From the IMG/VR virus record IMGVR_UViG_3300032397_000005, positions 1 through 64,000 of that record: 64,000 nucleotides of DNA. One strand, 5' to 3'. The notes below the pieces were generated by a model. It made no database searches and was not told the origin of the DNA. It worked only from the letters and a program-made list of their open reading frames with translations. The translations under genes were made by a program, and so were the position numbers. Below, piece after piece: positions 21,873 to 51,970 of this stretch. Source of the stretch: a virus. Position 1 is the stretch's first letter. Every line of letters begins with the position of its first letter.

Positions 21873-21875
21873 GTG

Positions 21876-22769
21876 ATGGACACCTTGGTCCTTGGGTTGG
21901 GGCCCGTTGGGCTGCTGACCTCCTACATCAAGAAGGTCCCGTGCGTTGGGGAGCAACTTGGGGGGGACGCTAGGCTCCGGCGCTTGGTCCCAACCGTCAT
22001 ATGGTACTCTCCGGCGACGTCCGGGATCCTCCAGGAACTGGAGCTCTCTCAGGAGGTGGAGGAGGTCCGGTTTGGTTTCTGGGGTCCGCGTGGTATAACG
22101 CAGGACGTCACACCAACGGAGCGGGCGGAGTACCTCCGTCGGAGTGGACGTGACCCCGCAGCGGAGTTGACCTCCGCAATCTCCTCCGGGGCGTCTGGAT
22201 CTCTACTGGGCTACAAGGTCACCGTTGAGGAGCTCTGCGCCGCGCTGGGGGCGCGTTGTGACGTCAGGGTGGGGAAGGTCTCGGGTATTCTACCGGACCT
22301 GCTTGAAGGGCGCGTGCGCGTTCAGGCGACGTGCGGGGAGCTACTCCCGGACCTCCTGATCAACACCCTCCCGGCGCCGGTGTTCGATAAGCTCCTCCGC
22401 GGGGAGTTCACCACGCGGCCGTGGTGCGCCGGGTCGAAGTGGTTCATCGAGGGGCTGTCCTGGTCCGCTCTACTCCGGGAGGCGCGGGACTCCGGCCTTC
22501 GGTGGCTCTACGTGTCGGATCCGTGCGTCCCGTTTGACCGGGTGACAATCCGTCCGCACGGGTTCTCCTACGAGTTCAACTCACAACCTCCTACCTGGTT
22601 CTGGGATGACGTCGTTGGGGAGGTTGTTGGTCCGCTACCGCTTCAGGTGCTTGGGGATCCGCGGGCGGCGATTGAGTTCGGTGGTCTCGTTCGGCACGTT
22701 GGTCGGATGGCCAGGTGGGATCATAGGATACGGATCCACAACGTGGTTGATGAGGTGGTCTATGTCTGA
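21876..22769 (+). CDS. FAD-dependent oxidoreductase-like protein (UDP-galactopyranose mutase/PPOX-like fold)
   Basis: N-terminal VLGLGPVG (GxGxxG), LINTLP, YVSDP.VPF.RVT, C-terminal GRMARW. Confidence 0.65.
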   Translation: MDTLVLGLGPVGLLTSYIKKVPCVGEQLGGDARLRRLVPTVIWYSPATSGILQELELSQEVEEVRFGFWGPRGITQDVTPTERAEYLRRSGRDPAAELTSAISSGASGSLLGYKVTVEELCAALGARCDVRVGKVSGILPDLLEGRVRVQATCGELLPDLLINTLPAPVFDKLLRGEFTTRPWCAGSKWFIEGLSWSALLREARDSGLRWLYVSDPCVPFDRVTIRPHGFSYEFNSQPPTWFWDDVVGEVVGPLPLQVLGDPRAAIEFGGLVRHVGRMARWDHRIRIHNVVDEVVYV

Positions 22770-23742
22770 GGCGTTCAAGGACCTTCTGGCGCGGCAGCTC
22801 GAGTTCAACCTGCGCTTCTTCGCGGACCGGGGCCTTGGGGACGTCCGCCTCCTCTCCGCGCGGGATCGGGTGGAGTGGACGAAGCAGTTCATCCTCCACG
22901 TAGAGGGGGAACTTCATGAGCTTCTAGGGGAGACATCCTGGAAGATGCACCGCCCGTCGCGGGATGAGGCTGTCCGCTCTAATGTTTTGGAGGAGTGGGT
23001 CGACTGCTTCAAGTTCCTCCTCGGGCTGGCGAACGTCTGGGACTTCTCCGCGGCGGAGATCGAGGCGGAGTTCCACCGGAAGACATCCGTGGTCGAGTAC
23101 CGGTACGGGATGGAGCAGCGCCTGCGCGCCATCCGACCCGGGGTCGACCACTTAGTTGGCGTGGACATCGACGGGGTCCTCTCGGACTACCCCGACGTGT
23201 TCTGTGAGTGGGTCTGCCAAACCGTCCCGGAGTTCTCCTTCGAGAAGCGGGGGGACCTGCCCTTCCTCTCCACGCTCCGGGAGGAGCTTGGGTCGAAGCG
23301 ATACCGCGAGCTGAAGGACCGCTACCGGGAGAGCGGGGCGAAGCGGTCCCAGCGGGTCCGCCCGGGCGCGAAGGCGCTCCTCGACGGGCTCCGCGCGGCG
23401 GGGTTCTCCGTCATCCTCCTCTCCGCGCGGCCATACTGGCGCTTTTCACGCATCTACGCGGACACGCTGGAGTGGCTCGCTGAGAACGGGCTCCGGCACG
23501 ACGCGGTCCTCTTTCACCCGGAGAAGCACCGGAAGATCTTGGAGGACTTTCCCGGGCTCCTGGCGATGGTGGAGGACGACCCGGTTGTTGCTGCGGAGAT
23601 GGTCTCCGTGGGGGTATCCGTGGTTCTTGTGAGTAACCAGCTGAACGAGCGTCAAGAGGTTCCGGGCGCGGTGCGCGTGGCCGGTCCTATTGAGGCGCTT
23701 GAAGCAATCCTTGAGATTGCGTTGAGGAGAGTGAGAAAGTGA
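22762..23742 (+). CDS. All-alpha NTP pyrophosphatase (dimeric dUTPase/MazG-like) fused to a HAD 5'-nucleotidase
   Basis: GELHELLGETSWKMH...LEEWVDCFKF; VGVDIDGVL, LSAR, K, MVEDD. Confidence 0.8.
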   Translation: MSEAFKDLLARQLEFNLRFFADRGLGDVRLLSARDRVEWTKQFILHVEGELHELLGETSWKMHRPSRDEAVRSNVLEEWVDCFKFLLGLANVWDFSAAEIEAEFHRKTSVVEYRYGMEQRLRAIRPGVDHLVGVDIDGVLSDYPDVFCEWVCQTVPEFSFEKRGDLPFLSTLREELGSKRYRELKDRYRESGAKRSQRVRPGAKALLDGLRAAGFSVILLSARPYWRFSRIYADTLEWLAENGLRHDAVLFHPEKHRKILEDFPGLLAMVEDDPVVAAEMVSVGVSVVLVSNQLNERQEVPGAVRVAGPIEALEAILEIALRRVRK

Positions 23743-24812
23743 GTGACAGAGCGGAGAAGATCAGGGAGATGCGTCGGAGGATGGGGACGCTTCCCCACCA
23801 GGCGCCGAAGGTCAGCACGCGGTTCTTCCGCGGGGTGGAGGGGATCCAGGTTTCCCTCATCGACGGTCCGGTGAACCCGTATCGGGCGATCTTCACCATG
23901 GCAACGTCCACCTGGGGGGCGGCAACGGCGGACGTTGCGGCGCGTTGGTCCTCCGTTACCCCGGAGGATCGCTTCGAGGTGATTAGATCCGTCCTCCTTG
24001 GGCAGGCACTCCCGTTGGCGCTCGAGGCACCAAAGTTCACCTTTTCCATCGCCGGTCTCTCCCGCTGGTCATTTGACCAGATTGTCCGGGCGCGTCTTGG
24101 GGTGGTCTACGCTTCTCTGGGGACGCGGGACAACTGCCACGCGGACATCCCGTTCCGCTTTCACGAGGCCACGTGGCGGAATCCGGACAAGTTGCGACTT
24201 GCGATGGAGGTTGCTCTACGCGCTAAGACGACGTACGGGATGTTCATGGACTCCGGACTTTCCTCCTGGCAGGAGGCGCGGGAGTTGCTCCCAATCTCGG
24301 TGGTTCACCGCTTTGTGATGGCCATCAACTACGCCTCCCTGCGGACAATGTGCGCGTCTCGGATGACATTCTCCGAGGCGGAGGACACGGTTGCCGTGGC
24401 GTGGCTCCTCCGGGATCGCCTCCTCCAAGAGGATGCCTACCCGTACCTGGCCGCCTGGCTTCGTCCGCGGTGCGACGTTGTTGGATCCTGCTGCTACCAC
24501 CGGGCGTACACCTCGGCGGAGGCGTTTGGGTGTCTCTACAGATCCTGCGGTAGAAACCCGGTCAAGTCGGCTCCCGGGATGCCTCCAATAGACTACGAGG
24601 TGGCGGAGTTTAACGAGGCGTGCTCCGACAGGGAGACGATCTCCCGTCAACTCGGAATCGGGATTCCCGGTTCTGAGGAGGGTCGAGCGGAGAATATCAC
24701 CTTCGCGGACCTGTCTCCGCGAGATAATCACCTGCTGGAGGAGAATGGAAACGCTTTCTACCACGGTTCATCCGGAGTCGATAGCTTGGGTGAATTTGGG
24801 TGGGGAGGATGA
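23739..24812 (+). CDS. Divergent ThyX-family flavoprotein (canonical RHRx7S motif altered)
   Basis: LE...FTFSIAGLSR...QIVRAR..., QEARELLP, N.ASL......R; Cys-rich C-terminus. Confidence 0.7.
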   Translation: MSDRAEKIREMRRRMGTLPHQAPKVSTRFFRGVEGIQVSLIDGPVNPYRAIFTMATSTWGAATADVAARWSSVTPEDRFEVIRSVLLGQALPLALEAPKFTFSIAGLSRWSFDQIVRARLGVVYASLGTRDNCHADIPFRFHEATWRNPDKLRLAMEVALRAKTTYGMFMDSGLSSWQEARELLPISVVHRFVMAINYASLRTMCASRMTFSEAEDTVAVAWLLRDRLLQEDAYPYLAAWLRPRCDVVGSCCYHRAYTSAEAFGCLYRSCGRNPVKSAPGMPPIDYEVAEFNEACSDRETISRQLGIGIPGSEEGRAENITFADLSPRDNHLLEENGNAFYHGSSGVDSLGEFGWGG

Positions 24813-25369
24813 TCCTAGCGTTGGAGGGAATCTCCGCGGTTGGTAAGTCATCCATCGCTACGGCGCTGAGTCGGGCGTTTGGCTTCGACGTGTATCAGGA
24901 TCAGGTGCGTCACGGGATCCTCGGGGAACTCTCCCGGCGGGAGATGTACCTGACCGGGAATCAGTGCGGCCTGGACCTCAGCTTTTTCTCGGGGCTCCTG
25001 GACTTCGTGGCGGACCGCTGGTGCCTGTCTTCCTACGTCTACGACACCTGGGGCGACGTTTCGCTCGAGGGAGCGTACGTGACGCAACTCCTCCCAATGT
25101 ACGTCAGGGCGTCTTCTCGGGTGTACCTCCTTCGATTGGACCCGGAGCTTGCGTTGTCTCGAATGCTCAAGCGGTCCGCTCGGGCGGAACGCGCGGTTGG
25201 GCCGTCCTACTCCCTGCAGCAGCTCCGGGATCTGGATGTAGGTTTTTCCCGGGCTGCGCGCATCTGGGGGGATCTTGGGGGTTGCGTCCTCGAGGTGGAC
25301 GCAACGGACGTTGCGGCGGCGGCGCGAGTGGTCATCGAGGACGTTCTGCTGTCCGGGATTCTCCGGTGA
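24809..25369 (+). CDS. Thymidylate-kinase-like dNMP kinase
   Basis: ILALEGISAVGKSS; ADRW..SSYVY; L.LDPE.AL.R...R. Confidence 0.8.
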   Translation: MILALEGISAVGKSSIATALSRAFGFDVYQDQVRHGILGELSRREMYLTGNQCGLDLSFFSGLLDFVADRWCLSSYVYDTWGDVSLEGAYVTQLLPMYVRASSRVYLLRLDPELALSRMLKRSARAERAVGPSYSLQQLRDLDVGFSRAARIWGDLGGCVLEVDATDVAAAARVVIEDVLLSGILR

Positions 25370-25944
25370 GGATGCTGGTTGAGAGGACCGTGGACTGCCG
25401 TGCTTGCGACCTGGGGTTCCTTGGGCTCCCCAGGTGCGTGGGGTATGGTCCGGTGGTAGCGGAGGTGGCGGTTGTTGGGATCAACCCCTCCGTCCGGGCG
25501 GTGGACGGGGAGACCGCGTTCCGCGTTGCGGATTTTGTTCGAGTTGGGGAACGCGCGGCGGGGTTGAGGTTGACGGGGGCGCTCCGGGCGTTTTGGCACC
25601 TCTCCAGGCTCTCCGGTCTTGAGCTCAGTCTCGCCTACGTCACAAATGCGGTCAAGTGCGCAACGCCGGGGAATCGAGTACCGACCGCGGAGGAGATCGA
25701 AGCGTGCCTGAGAAGCCACTTGACGTTGGAGATGAGTTCCTTGGGGAACCTGCGGAGGGTCTTGGTTCTGGGGAGGATCGTTGGCGCCCACCTCGGGTTA
25801 AGCGACTTCGGGTGCCACCGGACGCTGGACGGTACGCTGGCGGAGGCAACGCTCCTCCGTCACCCGGTGGCCACGCTCCGGCGGTGGACGAGACTCCCGG
25901 TGGAGGCGGCCGCGTGGCGTTCCGCTCTGGGTCGTCCCTCCTAG
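25366..25944 (+). CDS. Uracil-DNA glycosylase superfamily protein (family-4-like Fe-S cysteines)
   Basis: CRACDL, VGYGP..A.V.VVGINP, YVTNAVKC...GNR.PT.EEIEAC, VLVLG, LRHP. Confidence 0.8.
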   Translation: MRMLVERTVDCRACDLGFLGLPRCVGYGPVVAEVAVVGINPSVRAVDGETAFRVADFVRVGERAAGLRLTGALRAFWHLSRLSGLELSLAYVTNAVKCATPGNRVPTAEEIEACLRSHLTLEMSSLGNLRRVLVLGRIVGAHLGLSDFGCHRTLDGTLAEATLLRHPVATLRRWTRLPVEAAAWRSALGRPS

Positions 25945-25994
25945 CGGACGCGGACTCCCAGGCACTCGTCTCAGACATCTCCGGGGACGCGCGG

Positions 25995-28900
25995 ATGAAG
26001 GTCGTTGTCCACAAGGAGTACGCCCAGAGCATCTCCGCGGAGGAGGTGACGGACAAGCGGGACGTGGTTGACCTCCGGGACGCCACGGACTTCGACGACA
26101 TGAAGGACCTCCGCTTCTTCAACGAGCGGGAGTATTACCACGGTTGGTCGGAGGGGGAGGACATTGTCCTCCTACGGCGGGACCCGGAGACGGGGAGGCG
26201 GATCAAGGAGGTCCACCCGTTCGAGTGGTACTTCTACCTGGCGCGGGAGGACTTTGACCGACTCCCGGCGGACAAGGTGGCGTGGCTCTGCCGCCACCAC
26301 GCCAAGCGGGTCGAGCCGGATCCGGCCTTCCCGGATCGCTACGTGCGCGTGTACGTCCCCTATAAGTACCCTAAGATCGATCACGATCGGATCTTCCAGC
26401 GGGTGGGGGATCCGGACGCCGGCGCAATGTGGTTGGCACCGTACGTCCTGGGTGAGCGGCCGCACGCCGTCCGGTTCCCCCAGGATCGGGAGCGCTGGAC
26501 GCACCTTCACGAGGCGCTGGAGTGGTGTCAGCGGAAGGGGCTCACTCCGCTCGAGGCGGACCTGACGCCGAAGCAGCGCTTCCTGACGGACTACGACCTG
26601 CACATTCAGGCGCGCTACCACCTGGGCTTCGTCGACATCGAGACGGACGACACCGTCGGCGGCTTCGACAACAAGGAACACAACCGGATCCTCTCTATCG
26701 CCTGGGAGGGGGACCGCGTGGAGAAGGACCCGGATGATCGCGGATTCGTCATCCTGGAGGCGGAGACGGACGAGGCGGAGCGGGAGATGCTCCTGCGCTT
26801 TAAGAGGGAGTGCCTGGCGCGGTACGACGTTGTGGCGGCTTGGAACGGGTTCGGCTTTGACTTCCCCATCATCATCTACCGGTTCCGGAAGCACCGGATC
26901 CCGATTGACTGGAGGTACCACCTCTTTGCGGATCCGCTACCGGTGTTCAAGCGGCACTACGTCCGGGCGGGGGCGGACGCCATCTCCTACTCCCTGGACG
27001 CAATTGGGTCGGCCGTCCTGAAGATGAGCAAGCTGGACTGGCGGACGGAGTTCCGCCGACGTCAACCTGGGGTGGTCCCGAAGTTCATCAACCTCTACCG
27101 GAGGGAACCGGGGCTCCTGGAGGAGTACAACCGCTACGACGCCACGATACTCCGGAAGCTCGAGGCGTTCACCGGCTTCGTAGCCATCGAGCAGATCTTC
27201 TGCCGCGTTGCCAACGGCTTCGCCAACGATTGGAACATCTCGACCAAGATCGACCAGCTCCTCTTGAAGAAGGGGTTCAAGGACGGGCACCATTTCCCGA
27301 CTCGGTTCTGGTCTCCTGGTCGCCCGGAGCAGTACGAGGGGGCCTACGTTTTCCCACCCAAGGTGGGGATGCACGAGAACGTCTGCGCCTTCGACTTCAA
27401 GTCCCTGTATCCGTCGATGGTCCGGGCGTTCAACATCTCCCCGGAGAGCATTGTCAAGGCGGTGGACCGGGAGGACTTCCTCCGGAAGTACGGTCCGGAC
27501 TCCCTCTGCCGTTGTCCGGTTGTTGACTGCGGCGGCGTGATGAAGGGTGGGGCCACCTTCCGGAAGGATCGGGAGGGGTATATCTCCCAGATGTTTGTCC
27601 GGACGCTGGAGCGGCGGCGGAAGTACACGACGCTCCAGTCCGAGCGACTCAAGGAGGTTGGGAGCACTCAGGATGACCTGTTCCTCCTCTACTACCGCCT
27701 GGCCTACTCCTTCAAGCGACTGGGGCTCTCCTTCTACGGTGATTTGGGGAACCCGCGCTCGCGCTACTACGACACGGAGTTGGCGGAGGCCATCACGCTC
27801 GCTGGGCGGTTCTTCATTCAGCAGACGGCCAAGTATGCGGAGGAAGTTGGCGGATATAAAGCAATTTATGGGGATAGCGTCACCGGGCGCCGGAACCTGG
27901 TGCTGCTCGACCCCGCCGGGCGGCTCCGCGTCCTCCCGGTCGAGCGTCTCTGGGCGGAGCTTTCGGGGGAGGCGGAGGCGCGGTCTGACGGTAAGGAGGT
28001 GAAGCGGGCGGACGGCTGGCGCTCGATGTCCGCGCTCGAGGGTGGGGGCTCTACCTGGGCGCCAGTGGCGGAGGTGATCCGGCACCGGACCGGGAAGCGG
28101 ATCCTGCGTCTGACGACCCCGGAGGGGCAGGTGGAGGTGACCGAGGACCACGGCGTCACCGTCCTGCGGGACGGAGCCCTGGCGGAGAGGACGGCGGCGG
28201 AGGTTCACCGGGACGGGGAGGAGCTGGTCCGCGTGGACGTCCCGCCGGTGGCGGAGGTGGCGGAGGTGGACCTCCTTGCGGAGGTTGGTTCCTACCGCCG
28301 GGAGTACGCGCGGGAGGTCTCCCAGGCGCGGCACGTCCGGCGCGCGGAGGTGCGACTGGGGAGCGAGCGCGCGTCGGACGGGATGGACTTCCTCCTGCTG
28401 ACGTTCGAGGGGGAGATCGGGTTCGAGCCTACCGAGCGGGTCCGCTTCCGACGCCGCTTCCGGGTGGGGACCCCGGAGCTTGATGCCCTCCTGGACCTCC
28501 TCGGGACGTTCTGCGCGGAGGGATCCGTGTCCGTTGTCGGGGACCGCTTTGGCGGGGCTTCTATCGGGATGGAGGACCGCGCGCGGATGGCGGAGCTTTC
28601 CGCCGTCTACCAACTCCTGTGCCCAACCGCGGGGTCTGACGGGCTGACCGATGACGGGCGGAAGCTCCAGATGCGCTGCGAGTTGATCTCCTTGCTCTTT
28701 GCGCGACTCTGCGGCGTCGGGGCGGACGGGAAGCGGGTCCCCGGGTTCGTCTACCACCTCCCGGAGCGGGAGCGGCGGCGCTTCCTCTCCGCCTACCTGC
28801 GCGGGGACGGGCACTTCTGGAATGACCGCCGCGGGGGCGCTACCTGGGAGGACTTCGACGGGTGGGAGTGCGGGAGTAACTCCCTCGAGCTTTCCTCCGG

Positions 28901-30119
28901 CCTGGCCGTCCTCTGCCGTCAGCTCGGGGTCCCCTACGGGGTCCGGACGGGCGTCTCCGCGCTCTCCGGTAACGTCTGGTACGGGCTCCGGACGAAGAAG
29001 CTTCGCGGGCGCAGTCACTGCTTCCTGCGGCGGCACGGGCGCGCCACCCCGCGGCTGGAGGAGGTCCCCGGGGACGGGTTCGTCTACGACCTCTGTGTAC
29101 CGGGATCCCAGCGATTTACGGAGGCGCTCGGTTGCGTTTCCCTCCACAACACTGATTCGCTGTATATCCAGCTCGCGCCCACCGGGAGGACCTGGTCGTC
29201 GGAGGAGGCGCGCATCGCGGAGCTCAACGGGAAGGCGGAGAAGTTCCTCGAGTACGTCCAGACGCGGTACGACGCGCACCTCCGGTCCTTTGGTTGCCGG
29301 ATGGACTGGAACGTGGTTCTACTTGAGTACGAGGACGTGTACGACCGCATCTTCTTCGTGGTCAAGAAGCGGTACGCGGGGCGGCTCCTGGTTCACAAGG
29401 GGGAGCGGACGGATAACGTGGAGGTGAAGGGGCTGGAGGTGATGCGCTCCGACTGCTCCGGGATGACGCGTCGCCTTCAGCAGCGGGTCCTCGACGGCAT
29501 CCTCATGGAGCGGATGAGTGGGGAGGAGATTGAGCGGACGATCATTGCGCCGGAGTTCACCCGTTGCGCGGAGAACCAGCTGACCGCGGCGGAGGTCTCC
29601 ATTGGGAAGGGCATCTCCAAGGAGCCGGAGCGGTATAAGACGAAGGCGCTCCACGTCAAGTTGGCGGAGGAGATCCGGGCCACCGGGCGGGAGTTCTTCG
29701 TTGGGATGAAGGTTGAGTACGTGGTCACCTCCGTGAAACCGAACTTGAACGGGGTCCTCCGGGAGGACTTCGAGGACGCGGCGGGCGCGATCACCTACGC
29801 GGCGGAATACTACTGGGACCGCGTCATCTACCCGGCAAGTTTGCGGATCTTACAGGTCTGCTTTCCGGAGAAGGACTGGAAGCGGTGGTTGGTGGAGAAC
29901 CGGCGGCGGCGGCGGGACTTGGTCCAGCGCTACCAGCGCTGGTTCCTGGATCCCAAGCGCGTGGGGAAGGCGGTTGAGCGGATCCGAGAGAACGTACGTG
30001 GTCTACTTCAGGAGGAGGATCTGGTGGAACTTCGGCGCAGTCCACGCATCAGGACTATTGCTGGGAGAGGGAGTGAGCATGAGACGCGTGAAGAAGTTGA
30101 CCTCAGCGGCGACGCTTGA
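25995..30119 (+). CDS. polB: Family B DNA polymerase with intein
   Basis: DIETD (ExoI), WNG.GFD (ExoII), YNRYD (ExoIII), FDFKSLYPS, K...LSFYG, YGD^TDS, KKRYAG, KGLE..RSD. Confidence 0.95.
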   Translation: MKVVVHKEYAQSISAEEVTDKRDVVDLRDATDFDDMKDLRFFNEREYYHGWSEGEDIVLLRRDPETGRRIKEVHPFEWYFYLAREDFDRLPADKVAWLCRHHAKRVEPDPAFPDRYVRVYVPYKYPKIDHDRIFQRVGDPDAGAMWLAPYVLGERPHAVRFPQDRERWTHLHEALEWCQRKGLTPLEADLTPKQRFLTDYDLHIQARYHLGFVDIETDDTVGGFDNKEHNRILSIAWEGDRVEKDPDDRGFVILEAETDEAEREMLLRFKRECLARYDVVAAWNGFGFDFPIIIYRFRKHRIPIDWRYHLFADPLPVFKRHYVRAGADAISYSLDAIGSAVLKMSKLDWRTEFRRRQPGVVPKFINLYRREPGLLEEYNRYDATILRKLEAFTGFVAIEQIFCRVANGFANDWNISTKIDQLLLKKGFKDGHHFPTRFWSPGRPEQYEGAYVFPPKVGMHENVCAFDFKSLYPSMVRAFNISPESIVKAVDREDFLRKYGPDSLCRCPVVDCGGVMKGGATFRKDREGYISQMFVRTLERRRKYTTLQSERLKEVGSTQDDLFLLYYRLAYSFKRLGLSFYGDLGNPRSRYYDTELAEAITLAGRFFIQQTAKYAEEVGGYKAIYGDSVTGRRNLVLLDPAGRLRVLPVERLWAELSGEAEARSDGKEVKRADGWRSMSALEGGGSTWAPVAEVIRHRTGKRILRLTTPEGQVEVTEDHGVTVLRDGALAERTAAEVHRDGEELVRVDVPPVAEVAEVDLLAEVGSYRREYAREVSQARHVRRAEVRLGSERASDGMDFLLLTFEGEIGFEPTERVRFRRRFRVGTPELDALLDLLGTFCAEGSVSVVGDRFGGASIGMEDRARMAELSAVYQLLCPTAGSDGLTDDGRKLQMRCELISLLFARLCGVGADGKRVPGFVYHLPERERRRFLSAYLRGDGHFWNDRRGGATWEDFDGWECGSNSLELSSGLAVLCRQLGVPYGVRTGVSALSGNVWYGLRTKKLRGRSHCFLRRHGRATPRLEEVPGDGFVYDLCVPGSQRFTEALGCVSLHNTDSLYIQLAPTGRTWSSEEARIAELNGKAEKFLEYVQTRYDAHLRSFGCRMDWNVVLLEYEDVYDRIFFVVKKRYAGRLLVHKGERTDNVEVKGLEVMRSDCSGMTRRLQQRVLDGILMERMSGEEIERTIIAPEFTRCAENQLTAAEVSIGKGISKEPERYKTKALHVKLAEEIRATGREFFVGMKVEYVVTSVKPNLNGVLREDFEDAAGAITYAAEYYWDRVIYPASLRILQVCFPEKDWKRWLVENRRRRRDLVQRYQRWFLDPKRVGKAVERIRENVRGLLQEEDLVELRRSPRIRTIAGRGSEHETREEVDLSGDA
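27876..29150 (+). mobile_element. Intein (425 aa) with LAGLIDADG homing endonuclease, inserted in polymerase motif C
   Basis: Splits YGD|TDS; begins SVTG, block B VTEDHG, LLGTFCAEG and FLSAYLRGDG motifs, VYDL, ends LHN before Thr. Confidence 0.93.
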
Positions 30120-48639: not shown

Positions 48640-48913
48640 GCCAGATGTTCACGTTGACGGGACCTCCTTGATGGTGAACGGAGTCAGGATCCACCTCCAC
48701 TTCCTGGACGCGTTCCGGGAGCTCCCGGAGGGGGGAACGGTGCCGCTGGTCAAGGTCTACTGCCAGGGCTGTCGGAAGTACAAAGTCGTCTCCCGGGTTG
48801 GCCTCCGTCACATGGGCGGCGGGGTGGTTGCCCTCCAGTCGAACTGCCACGAGTGTCGGGGCGTCATGAACGCCAGGAAGGCGGAGGAAGATGGGAGAAG
48901 GGCCACTCGCTGA
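48623..48913 (+). CDS. Hypothetical Zn-ribbon protein
   Basis: YCQGC...CHEC. Confidence 0.55.
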   Translation: MTREVEPDVHVDGTSLMVNGVRIHLHFLDAFRELPEGGTVPLVKVYCQGCRKYKVVSRVGLRHMGGGVVALQSNCHECRGVMNARKAEEDGRRATR

Positions 48914-49763
48914 GAGACCCCTGATTGCGGCGGTTAGGGACGCCTTGTCGGAGGCGGAGCGGCGCGGGCGGGAGGCGGGGCTCCGGGAGCGGCTCCGGAT
49001 CCCAAGGCTCCCCTGGGATCAGTTCTTCATGCTCCACGCTCACCTGACGGCCACTCGGTCCACGTGTGATCGCGGGCCGGAGCTCCTCCTGGATCCCGGG
49101 CGGCACGGCGTGGGGGCGGTGATTGTCCGGGAGAACCGGATGGTGGCCGGGGGCTACAATGGGTCACCTCCTGGGGAACCGCACTGCTCGGATCTGGTTT
49201 GCGCCAATTGCGCCGCGGACTACGTGAGGGACCCCATCGACCCGTCTAAGGACGACCGTGGCTTTGCCCGGGCGGAGATCAATGCGGGGAGGTGCCCGAT
49301 CTGCGGCGGGAAGATCCTGGGTGGTCACATAATGCGGGATGGTCATTGCGTCAGAACACTGCACGCGGAGGAGAACGCCTTGCTCCAGTGCGCCCTGGAC
49401 GGGACCACCCCGGAGGGGGCCGCGATCTACACGTCCGCCTCTGCGTGCTGGGACTGCTCCAAGCGGATCCTGAGGGCCAAGGTGGCGCGCGTGGTCTTTG
49501 CGGACGTGTATGACTCGCGCTACGGGCTCTCACTTGACGCCGTGGAGTTGCTCCGGCGGAATGAGGTGCAGATTGAGTACCTGGACGTTCGAGATGCGCT
49601 TAGTTGGGCCAGAGCTTCCTCTTTCAAGGTAGTAGGGGCCCGGGGTCGCGTCCGGTCCCACCCAGAGCGACTTGAGCGAGGAGAGGACGGGGGTGAGCCA
49701 AAGCAGGAGACCAGGAAGGGTCATCCGGTGGTGAATAACTCACCCGGGGATTGGGATCCCTGA
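48891..49763 (+). CDS. dCMP deaminase with an inserted Zn ribbon
   Basis: WDQFFM..A...ATRSTC, VGAVIV, GYNGSP.G..HC, HAEENAL, CWDC. Confidence 0.88.
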   Translation: MGEGPLAERPLIAAVRDALSEAERRGREAGLRERLRIPRLPWDQFFMLHAHLTATRSTCDRGPELLLDPGRHGVGAVIVRENRMVAGGYNGSPPGEPHCSDLVCANCAADYVRDPIDPSKDDRGFARAEINAGRCPICGGKILGGHIMRDGHCVRTLHAEENALLQCALDGTTPEGAAIYTSASACWDCSKRILRAKVARVVFADVYDSRYGLSLDAVELLRRNEVQIEYLDVRDALSWARASSFKVVGARGRVRSHPERLERGEDGGEPKQETRKGHPVVNNSPGDWDP

Positions 49764-51142: not shown

Positions 51143-51970
51143 ATGAGTAAATTTAGCATTTTGGAGGTTGTGGAACCGCACGCGTACCTTGTGGGGGAGG
51201 CGGGAAGCAGCCCGGAGACTTGGGCGGAGCGGGCACTTCTGCTCATCGAGGAGTGCGGGCGGGTCTCCCACAAGAGCGAGGGGCGGATCAAACCCGGGAG
51301 CGCGGTCCCGTTCGTGCGGAAGGTGGCCATCGAGTGGGGGCACGAGTCGATTCTGGAGCACGCCAGCCTGACGGTCTGCTTCGTGGGCTCCCGGTCGATG
51401 AGTCACCAGCTGGTTAGACATCGAATCGCCGCCTACACTCAGGAGTCCCAGCGATTCTGCGACTACGCGACGCCGGCACTTGGTCTGGACGAACAACCGG
51501 AGTGCGAGCGGGTGAGTCGACTGAAGGTGGTCGTCCCCCCGTCCGTCTCCGCGGACCTCCCGGCGGGGAGCCTGGTGTACCAAGATAACGTGCGGATAAC
51601 CGACGCTAATTGCGTCCTGGAACGCCTCAGCGTGAGGCGAAGTGAGGAGCTGCCTCCGGAGGGAGTAGACCTCAGATCCCCAGTCGGGGTCTTCCTCGCG
51701 TCCGTCATGAGCTCATACGCCACCTATCAGAAACTTCGGGAGCTCAACATACCGGCGGAGGACGCGCGGGAGGTCCTGCCAAACGCCACGAAGACGGAGG
51801 TGTACACCACCTTCAACCTCCGGGAGTGGCGCCACTTCTTCAAGATGAGACTGGACAAGCACGCTCAGTGGCAGATCAGGAAGGTTGCCCGGGAGGTCTT
51901 CAACTTCCTCCTGGCGGTCTGCCCTGTGGTGCTGGAGGGGTTGAGGACGCACTCCGGGGAGGTGATATGA
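51143..51970 (+). CDS. thyX: Flavin-dependent thymidylate synthase (canonical)
   Basis: GHESILEH, SHQLVRHRIAAYTQESQRF (RHRx7S), EDAREVLPNA, NLREWRHFF..R...HAQWQIR. Confidence 0.93.
   Translation: MSKFSILEVVEPHAYLVGEAGSSPETWAERALLLIEECGRVSHKSEGRIKPGSAVPFVRKVAIEWGHESILEHASLTVCFVGSRSMSHQLVRHRIAAYTQESQRFCDYATPALGLDEQPECERVSRLKVVVPPSVSADLPAGSLVYQDNVRITDANCVLERLSVRRSEELPPEGVDLRSPVGVFLASVMSSYATYQKLRELNIPAEDAREVLPNATKTEVYTTFNLREWRHFFKMRLDKHAQWQIRKVAREVFNFLLAVCPVVLEGLRTHSGEVI

Follow-up and report, generated by a model that had tools for sequence, protein, structure and literature searches.

Why should a phage that encodes a canonical flavin-dependent thymidylate synthase (TS), ThyX, carry a further ThyX-like gene in which the catalytic motifs have been rewritten? 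The question is posed by IMG/VR virus record IMGVR_UViG_3300032397_000005, of which positions 1 to 64,000 were analysed and are referred to here as the window. ThyX is a homotetramer whose active sites are shared between subunits; the His of its GH.S..EH motif (H53 in Thermotoga maritima ThyX) stacks folate or reduced nicotinamide adenine dinucleotide phosphate (NADPH), and Q75, R78, R80, R90, R147 and R174 (T. maritima numbering) form the set that binds deoxyuridine monophosphate (dUMP). The canonical copy of the window phage, at 51143..51970 (+), scores 163 bits against Pfam Thy1, has GHESILEH and RHR..S.RF intact and matches ThyX structures in the PDB at 3e-23, the best being those of Mycobacterium tuberculosis and T. 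maritima. The ThyX-like open reading frame (ORF), at 23739..24812 (+), starts with GTG and encodes a protein of 357 residues whose most likely role, judging by the conservation and gene-neighbourhood patterns set out below, is the making or modification of an unusual pyrimidine for DNA.

The ThyX-like protein reaches 42.3 bits against Thy1 (PF02511), above the gathering threshold of 24.8, and does not match the ThyX signature RHRx7-8S(xR[YF]), reading RAR-x8-G-T-R-D instead. As a single query in phmmer it gave no match in the PDB, ThyX being reached only with a family profile; alignment of the family to the canonical copy alone by hhalign covered just the C-terminal half, at low probability, and a search of PHROGs matched no family. 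BLAST between the two window copies found no significant similarity (E 0.24), which marks the ThyX-like gene as an ancient paralogue and rules out a recent duplication. An AlphaFold2 model built with a 118-sequence alignment had a predicted local distance difference test score (pLDDT) of 93 and a predicted template modelling score (pTM) of 0.91, and its top Foldseek and VIA matches were all ThyX structures, including the uridine monophosphate (UMP)/dUMP methylase PolB of the polyoxin pathway (Foldseek E 1e-10). VIA-align superposed 195-212 residues at 2.3-3.2 A with Z scores of 15-17, covering nearly the whole ThyX chain; the match to 2af6 had a Z score of 17.2 (root-mean-square deviation 2.9, 209 residues), with Z ~17 to both M. 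tuberculosis and T. maritima ThyX. Since these alignments pick up again beyond a Cys-rich stretch, reaching model residue ~315, this stretch (residues ~241-297) is an insertion before the last ThyX helix. The protein is laid out as an N-terminal helix with a conserved MGT.P motif (residues 1-30), a ThyX core (~31-240), the Cys-rich insertion, and the last ThyX helix with a conserved tail (~298-357).

A first-pass annotation had read this ORF as a remodelled ThyX, and every motif string that it quoted was found in place when checked on the sequence. Residues were mapped by profile alignment of the family to M. tuberculosis ThyX and by alignment of the canonical window copy to T. maritima ThyX, the T. 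maritima residues being assigned their roles on the basis of the ThyX literature and of mutant structures, as titled (H53A/D, S88A/C, R90A, R174A/K, Y91F). In place of GH.S..EH the ORF has ALPLALEA (24006..24029, +), of which E96 (T. maritima E58) is the sole residue kept; across the family the motif is replaced by an equally conserved ALPLA.EA, in agreement with the proposal that the folate-stacking His had been lost. The signature loop, F112-D113-Q114-..-R117-x-R119-x-G121-....-G128-x-R130-D131-N132 (24072..24134, +; FDQIVRARLGVVYASLGTRDN), aligns with RHRx7SxRY of M. tuberculosis ThyX with a one-residue insertion (G121), and the family profile backs the register in which RAR corresponds to RHR, G128 to the Ser of RHRx7S, R130 to the arginine of SxR and D131 to the Tyr/Phe. 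The replacement of RHR by RAR holds for the window copy but not as a fixed motif, for the middle residue varies across the family (A/T/Q/S/V/M/H) and the loop consensus is R-x-R-[ILV]-G-x2-[FY]-[SA]-[SA]-x-G-x-R-D. Further on, QEARELLP (24270..24293, +) contains R181, equivalent to the dUMP-phosphate arginine R147, and the segment N197...R208...E213..D216 (24327..24386, +; NYASLRTMCASR...E..D) contains the equivalents of N163 (N197) and R174 (R208). The arginines of EARELLP and of N..SL.....R, both described as retained, proved to be invariant in the family alignments.

Conservation was read from two such alignments, of 36 and 118 family members. The T. maritima residues with kept equivalents are E58 (E96), Q75 (Q114), R78 and R80 (R117, R119), R90 (R130), R147 (R181), N163 (N197) and R174 (R208), and those that have been swapped are H53 with its motif, S88 (G128), Y91 (D131), R74 (D113), R165 (A/S) and H178 (S/C212), the position of H79 being variable. 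Within the dUMP-binding set, Q114, R117, R119, R181 and R208 are invariant and R130 is at least 90% conserved (invariant in the 36-sequence set), whereas on the flavin side the equivalents of E58 and N163 are kept and those of H79, R165 and H178 are lost. Besides the Cys cluster, the family has further invariants of its own, namely W59, D113, D131-N132, Y166, W177-Q178, E213, D216 and W222. Conservation thus covers the nucleotide side of the predicted pocket, whose folate/NADPH side and part of whose flavin side are rebuilt. Of the flavin/nucleotide scaffold that the first-pass annotation took to be retained, the nucleotide part is borne out by R117, R119, R130, R181, R208 and Q114; binding of a flavin is less certain, given the lost contacts and a separate flavoprotein that is always encoded alongside.

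The family itself is large. A word-indexed search returned at least 140 relatives with 38-100% identity, all metagenomic and without informative names, and a profile search of the full library gave 90 clusters (at 50% identity) with E <= 1e-30, a number that rose to 753 with the limit relaxed to E <= 1e-10. The gene was found in 73 IMG/VR contigs, representing 26 lineages at 60% identity, and the genomes of 185,579 species yielded only 6 matches, all in contigs of metagenome-assembled genomes. The remodelled positions are the most conserved columns: F112, D113, Q114, R117, R119, G128, R181, R208 and C251 show no variation among the 118 members, E96, D246 and R272 are also invariant in the family alignments, R130, D131 and E213 do not vary within the smaller set and are at least 90% conserved in the larger one, and L91, P92, G121, N132, Q178, C245, H254 and C270 are at least 90% conserved. 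Random degeneration at the motif positions, named beforehand as the outcome that would speak against a remodelled enzyme, was seen in neither alignment. The protein shares 60-73% identity with its counterparts in phages closely related to that of the window, within the range of the replicative polymerase PolB (58-74% per segment), and better conserved than the neighbouring flavoprotein and kinase.

The Cys/His cluster, C245-D246-x4-C251-x2-H254-x10-C265-x4-C270-G-R272 (24471..24554, +; CDVVGSCCYHRAYTSAEAFGCLYRSCGR), is a probable metal site (for Zn or Fe-S) with H254, C265 or D246 as candidate fourth ligands. It had been described as a tail of the form CxxxxxCCxH...C...C; the cluster does exist, but it belongs to the insertion before the last ThyX helix, which is followed by a tail, and its cysteines differ in constancy: C251 never varies, C245 and C270 rarely do, and the second C of the 'CC' is not conserved. 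H254, though at least 90% conserved in the 118-sequence alignment, is A or S in the second paralogue of the split forms described below, and C265 is frequent. An exchange in which H254 and C265 trade places as fourth ligand was ruled out, neither being present in 28 sequences. Model confidence in this region is lower (74-91).

Further evidence on the pocket came from natural rearrangements of the gene. In 36 loci, mostly marine (L034-L073, e.g. L072, L045, L064), two tandem ThyX-like paralogues stand in place of one gene, as at L035:10001-10819 and L035:10809-11528. The first (~270 residues) keeps W59, E96, R109, G128, R130, D131, N132, Y166, W177, Q178, R181 and N197 in 36/36 loci; it lacks R117, R119 and R208, as well as the entire Cys insert, in every one of them, and Q114 in all but two (34/36). 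The second (~235 residues) keeps Q114, R117, R119, G121, R208, E213, C245, C251, C265, C270 and R272 in 36/36 and has lost the set kept by the first. Such a reciprocal partition of the invariants is expected if the pocket joins the signature-helix/R208 side of one subunit with the loop/R181 side of another, as in ThyX. The complementary split forms thus argue for a ThyX-type inter-subunit pocket under selection, and suggest that the two paralogues form an obligate heteromer, in which only half as many sites would be complete. Inteins, which typically sit in essential motifs, were found in the same regions. In homologue P0089 an intein lies within the remodelled loop, between positions 125 and 126 (RARLGVVFS | C...HN | SMGWRD; Intein_splicing 40.7 bits), a homologue in L028 (L028:9986-11428) has a Hint-type insert between F211 and C212-E213, and further long forms (P0121, P0126, P0147, P0156, P0163) are broken near positions 117-131 and 216. 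The interruptions thus fall at two or three sites, every one of them within the remodelled motifs. Together, the intein sites and the split paralogues point to a classical inter-subunit ThyX pocket.

Whether the ThyX-like gene duplicates an existing function was assessed by whole-contig searches in the nine records estimated to be at least 90% complete. Five of these also encode a canonical TS, which is ThyX in the window phage, G008, G009 and G011, and ThyA in the 391-kb G005; three incomplete records likewise have both genes. ThyA and ThyX have been reported to be anticorrelated in jumbo phages (PMC7824862), and as no such exclusion between synthases was found here, the two ThyX-fold genes are argued to be non-redundant. 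Plain synthesis of deoxythymidine monophosphate (dTMP) by the ThyX-like protein is unlikely given this co-occurrence in five of the nine complete genomes, and a different chemistry or substrate, as first proposed from the motifs, would be the natural reading. In a comparison of the window phage with its closest relatives (L001, L003, L005, L019), the ThyX-like gene is constant and the canonical ThyX is not: L005 and L019 have it, and the complete L001 record does not.

In the window the ThyX-like gene is one of five genes joined by start/stop overlaps. The first encodes a partner flavoprotein of 298 residues (21873..22769, +) with a GxGxxG Rossmann motif, which AlphaFold2 and Foldseek assign to the amine-oxidase/PPO/UGM-type fold that binds flavin adenine dinucleotide (FAD): its model has a pLDDT of 90, the top Foldseek matches are FAD amine oxidases, and UDP-galactopyranose mutase (UGM) is at rank 20. 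It represents a virus-specific family, the nearest language-model Atlas clusters being 95-100% viral, and in PHROGs it matched no family. Overlapping it by 8 nucleotides is a fusion (22762..23742, +) of a MazG-type all-alpha nucleoside triphosphate (NTP) pyrophosphatase (Pfam dUTPase_2, 27.7 bits) with a HAD domain (DIDGV; HAD-type matches, 5'-nucleotidase/PNK-phosphatase-like), for which PHROGs gave NTP pyrophosphatase and PNK phosphatase. The GTG start of the ThyX-like gene overlaps the stop of this gene (GTGA), with AGGAGAG upstream. A thymidylate-kinase-like P-loop kinase follows (24800..25369, +), matching Pfam dNK and Thymidylate_kin below threshold and a PHROGs thymidylate kinase; its start is more likely ATG 24809, which overlaps the ThyX-like stop (ATGA) and has GGAGGA upstream, than the GTG at 24800 given by the ORF finder. 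The last coupled gene before the polymerase encodes a UDG-superfamily protein (25366..25944, +; Pfam UDG 37.4 bits), its start overlapping the kinase stop (GTGA), and is conserved in close relatives only. Family-4 UDGs usually carry a GEAPG-type motif; the protein of the operon reads VGINPS and may not be a standard uracil glycosylase. The polymerase PolB begins ~50 nucleotides past the UDG-superfamily gene. The window PolB (25656-30119) has an insertion of ~390 residues that is absent from close relatives, whose PolB aligns contiguously to residues 2-630 and 1025-1346; lying in the YGD|TDS motif, with flanks S... and ...HN|T, it looks like an intein, and a Pfam search for a Hint domain in it gave no match at E < 0.001. 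A deoxycytidine monophosphate (dCMP) deaminase, for supply of dUMP, is encoded at 48891..49763 (+; dCMP_cyt_deam_1, 57 bits).

Every ORF lying up to 10 kb from the ThyX-like gene was clustered in the 73 loci, of which 39, from 20 lineages, had full neighbourhoods (8 kb or more of sequence to either side). Clustering placed both the flavoprotein and the MazG-HAD protein in 38/39 full neighbourhoods, and tblastn found each in the remaining one, which makes them effectively universal (39/39, 20/20 lineages); tblastn matches to MazG-HAD were found in 53/73 loci, including all the full neighbourhoods. Counted per lineage (n=20), the thymidylate-kinase-like kinase occurs in 18, a short-chain dehydrogenase/reductase (SDR) of RmlD/epimerase type in 13, small ThyA-like proteins in 10 and a dCMP deaminase within 10 kb in 9, and a replicative polymerase (Pol III alpha or PolB) adjoins the ThyX-like gene in nearly all full neighbourhoods. 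The small ThyA-like proteins (160-255 residues; L022:8611-9135, L007:5208-5684, L059:770-1282, L056:6005-6487, L060:9252-9995) have a Cys motif and an RS.[DN] motif, and several have Asn at the position of Escherichia coli D169 and Asp at that of N177, the published signatures of 5-hydroxy-dCMP synthases and of cytosine specificity.

Compared with known systems, the family has the fold of ThyX (T. maritima TM0449, M. tuberculosis Rv2754c; PF02511), retains the equivalents of E58, Q75, R78, R80, R90, R147, N163 and R174, and through its split paralogues implies the same composite inter-subunit pocket. In contrast to ThyX, it is without the GH.S..EH His motif, reads R-x-R where ThyX has RHR, has G at the position of S88 and D at those of Y91 and R74, has lost the equivalents of H178 and R165, and adds the one-residue loop insertion, a Cys-rich insertion of ~55 residues, an N-terminal extension of ~30 residues and a conserved tail; it is also virus-restricted and co-occurs with canonical TS. 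In phage T4, pyrimidine modification before replication depends on the dCTPase gp56, the ThyA td together with the ThyA-fold dCMP hydroxymethylase gp42, and the deoxynucleoside monophosphate (dNMP) kinase gp1. The window parallels the T4 logic in that a canonical TS is accompanied by a paralogue with rewritten motifs, by a putative dNTP pyrophosphatase and by a candidate kinase of the pathway, near the replicase, the window kinase matching below Pfam cut-offs; it differs in that the rewired enzyme has the ThyX and not the ThyA fold, that a flavoprotein and a HAD domain are added, and that no glycosyltransferase was seen in the window operon. A precedent for a TS fold that switches cofactor and chemistry is found in the flavin-dependent ThyA-fold 5-hydroxy-dCMP synthases (PMC13326640). 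The polyoxin-pathway PolB is a neofunctionalised ThyX paralogue that acts as a UMP/dUMP C5-methylase (PMC5954106; PDB 4p5a/4p5b). Like the window protein it stands beside a housekeeping thyX and has been recruited to another nucleotide pathway, and it matches the model as well as ThyX does (Z 16.2); however, it keeps flavin/folate methylation and differs mainly in sugar specificity, whereas the window family has its cofactor-side motifs replaced. In Bacillus phage SP-15, which contains 5-dihydroxypentyluracil, one of two Thy1 genes has been proposed, as a hypothesis only, to make a modified dUMP (PMC5977210). SP-15 gp9/gp130 resemble the window in that a single phage encodes a pair of ThyX-family paralogues, the more divergent of which is the one proposed for modified dUMP, and SP-15 matched the ThyX-like model weakly (BFVD rank 14).

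Looser relatives occur in cultured phages. A search of cultured actinophages with the MazG-HAD protein matched the HAD half only, in 'phosphatase/nucleotidase' genes beside 'oxidoreductase' genes of Mycobacterium, Gordonia and Streptomyces phages. In Mycobacterium phage Hawkeye (L081, 47511-56052; gp70-gp78) the gene order of the module recurs, as oxidoreductase, nucleotidase, small ORF, FabG-like SDR, Pol III alpha (DnaE) and a ThyX-like gene with RQR and no His motif, and Hawkeye offers a cultured experimental handle on the wider module. Hawkeye gp78 scores 38 bits and Pbunavirus Epa7 gp11 55 bits against the family profile. Both resemble the window type in being His-less, in having R-x-R and in a PxC..GxC motif after the core, but keep S-x-R-[FA] and are without D113, GxRD, E213 and the full Cys cluster. 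In a midpoint-rooted FastTree phylogeny of 144 profile hits, from which canonical ThyX and Hawkeye gp78 were left out owing to poor alignment to the family hidden Markov model, the window type (D113 + GxRD + E213) formed one clade with support of 0.88, and that clade is all that the tree shows. The window type thus appears to be the most derived branch within a broader radiation of ThyX proteins that are carried by viruses and have no His motif. The Pbunavirus phages themselves have a modified thymidine at TG sites to which no genetic origin has been assigned (PMC12191111).

We give somewhat better than an even chance to the ThyX-like ORF encoding an active, neofunctionalised pyrimidine dNMP enzyme of a pool-level DNA-precursor pathway, acting with the flavoprotein, the MazG-HAD protein and the kinase, with a product that is not canonically made dTMP. 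The protein would assemble as ThyX does, with pockets built across subunits, and a pyrimidine dNMP would be held by the retained R117, R119, R130, R181, R208 and Q114, the canonical folate/NADPH site having been given up with the replacement of the His motif and with it several flavin contacts. It would carry out the base-modifying step among constant partners, in which the amine-oxidase-fold flavoprotein would provide redox or flavin chemistry, the MazG-HAD fusion would either hydrolyse the competing canonical dNTP/dNMP or supply the monophosphate, and the kinase would re-phosphorylate the product for the adjacent replicative polymerase. This product would be a C5-altered pyrimidine dNMP other than ordinary folate-made dTMP. 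We lean towards a uracil- or thymine-type substrate, given the retained R208, the thymidylate-kinase-like kinase and the frequent dCMP deaminase, and leave open dCMP, which the T4 analogy (td and gp42) and the new acidic D113 and D131 could suggest. The analysis itself shows the fold, the conserved motifs, the complementary split paralogues, the intein sites, the linkage of the genes and the co-occurrence with canonical TS; how the subunits assemble, which ligand and cofactor are used, which way the pathway runs and whether virion DNA has a modified base are what we infer. More tentatively, and with the odds against it, the chemistry may be new to the ThyX fold: a folate-independent C5 chemistry on a pyrimidine dNMP which, with an oxidase-fold flavoprotein and a Cys-bound metal, would place a new base where T or C normally stands in the DNA of phages from many uncultured lineages, that of the window among them. 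Two routes are possible, either flavin dehydrogenation of the dTMP methyl group to an exocyclic methylene (the last ThyX step reversed) followed by capture by a nucleophile, or transfer of a non-folate aldehyde carbon to dUMP.

Several observations weigh against an enzyme of this kind. A search of the complete 105-kb record of the window phage for the SDR and mini-ThyA genes that accompany the module elsewhere found neither, so that the phage has the module in a minimal form. Because of the linkage to replication genes, shared descent could explain part of the co-occurrence. No cultured phage with the exact subfamily was found, the best matches being Pbunavirus ThyX genes at 25% identity, and a literature search found no published characterisation of the family or of its Hawkeye and Epa7 relatives. 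A TG-specific thymidine mark such as that of Pbunavirus is hard to derive from a pool enzyme. Finally, in four of the nine complete genomes (G004, G006, G014, G022) no TS homologue other than the ThyX-like gene is encoded, a pattern that a genuine but unusual dTMP synthase would fit as well. Such an enzyme would make dTMP from dUMP with an unusual reductant or one-carbon supply, for example reduced flavin from the partner flavoprotein, and would be redundant where a canonical ThyX or ThyA is present. Besides these four genomes, it would account for the kept dUMP-contacting arginines and Gln, for the dCMP deaminase often close by and for the annotation of cultured-phage relatives as ThyX, and PDB entries 7ndw and 7ndz suggest that ThyX is able to use formaldehyde carbon without folate. 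We nevertheless consider it unlikely, as a canonical TS stands alongside in the other five complete genomes and in three incomplete ones, as the equivalents of S88, Y91, H53, H79 and H178 are all replaced and a Cys cluster is new, and as plain dTMP synthesis has no need of obligatory MazG-HAD and kinase partners.

Residues tied to chemistry and cofactors are lost (the His motif, H79, S88, Y91), phosphate- and base-binding arginines are kept, and the gene always lies beside other enzymes and the replicase; the protein might therefore be a non-catalytic nucleotide binder with only the binding pocket of ThyX left, which would sense nucleotide pools, carry dNMPs, or serve the flavoprotein, kinase and polymerase as an allosteric or scaffolding subunit. 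This is improbable: the new invariant polar residues of the pocket region (D113, D131, N132, E213, W177, Q178) and the conserved metal-type site look rebuilt and not stripped, and inteins target the remodelled motifs. Marginally less probable again is a modifier that acts on DNA or tRNA after synthesis, with a logic comparable to that of the flavin-dependent tRNA methylase TrmFO. The distant relatives in Pbunavirus, where modified thymidine is confined to TG sites and so implies a DNA-level step (PMC12191111), would favour it, but a closed ThyX pocket with five phosphate and base arginines suits a mononucleotide, the partners (NTP pyrophosphatase, nucleotidase, thymidylate-kinase-like kinase) are pool enzymes, and Pfam and PHROGs searches detected no DNA-binding domain in the protein. 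That the ORF is simply a degenerating second thyX copy deserves practically no credence. Its Pfam score is low (42 bits vs 163 for the canonical copy), but its reading frame is unbroken and coupled in translation to its neighbours, the split paralogues complement each other in the residues they keep, BLAST finds no significant similarity to the canonical copy, and the altered positions are invariant over 26 lineages of a large virus-restricted family; this pattern of conservation refutes decay, as the first-pass annotation had argued from the long and intact ORF.

ThyX is a drug target and the textbook case of flavin-mediated methylene transfer, and to our knowledge the only characterised neofunctionalised ThyX paralogue is polyoxin PolB. 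The ThyX-like family described here represents a large, virus-only branch in which the cofactor side has apparently been rebuilt and the nucleotide side kept, and its module is found in phages from wetlands to the open ocean, with looser relatives in mycobacteriophages and in Pseudomonas therapy phages, the latter having a modified thymidine without assigned genes. The natural split-paralogue forms provide a ready map of the residues that form one site. Once worked out, the reaction would reveal either a new route to modified phage DNA, of consequence for evasion of restriction and CRISPR, for phage therapy and for sequencing artefacts, or a new form of thymidylate synthesis.

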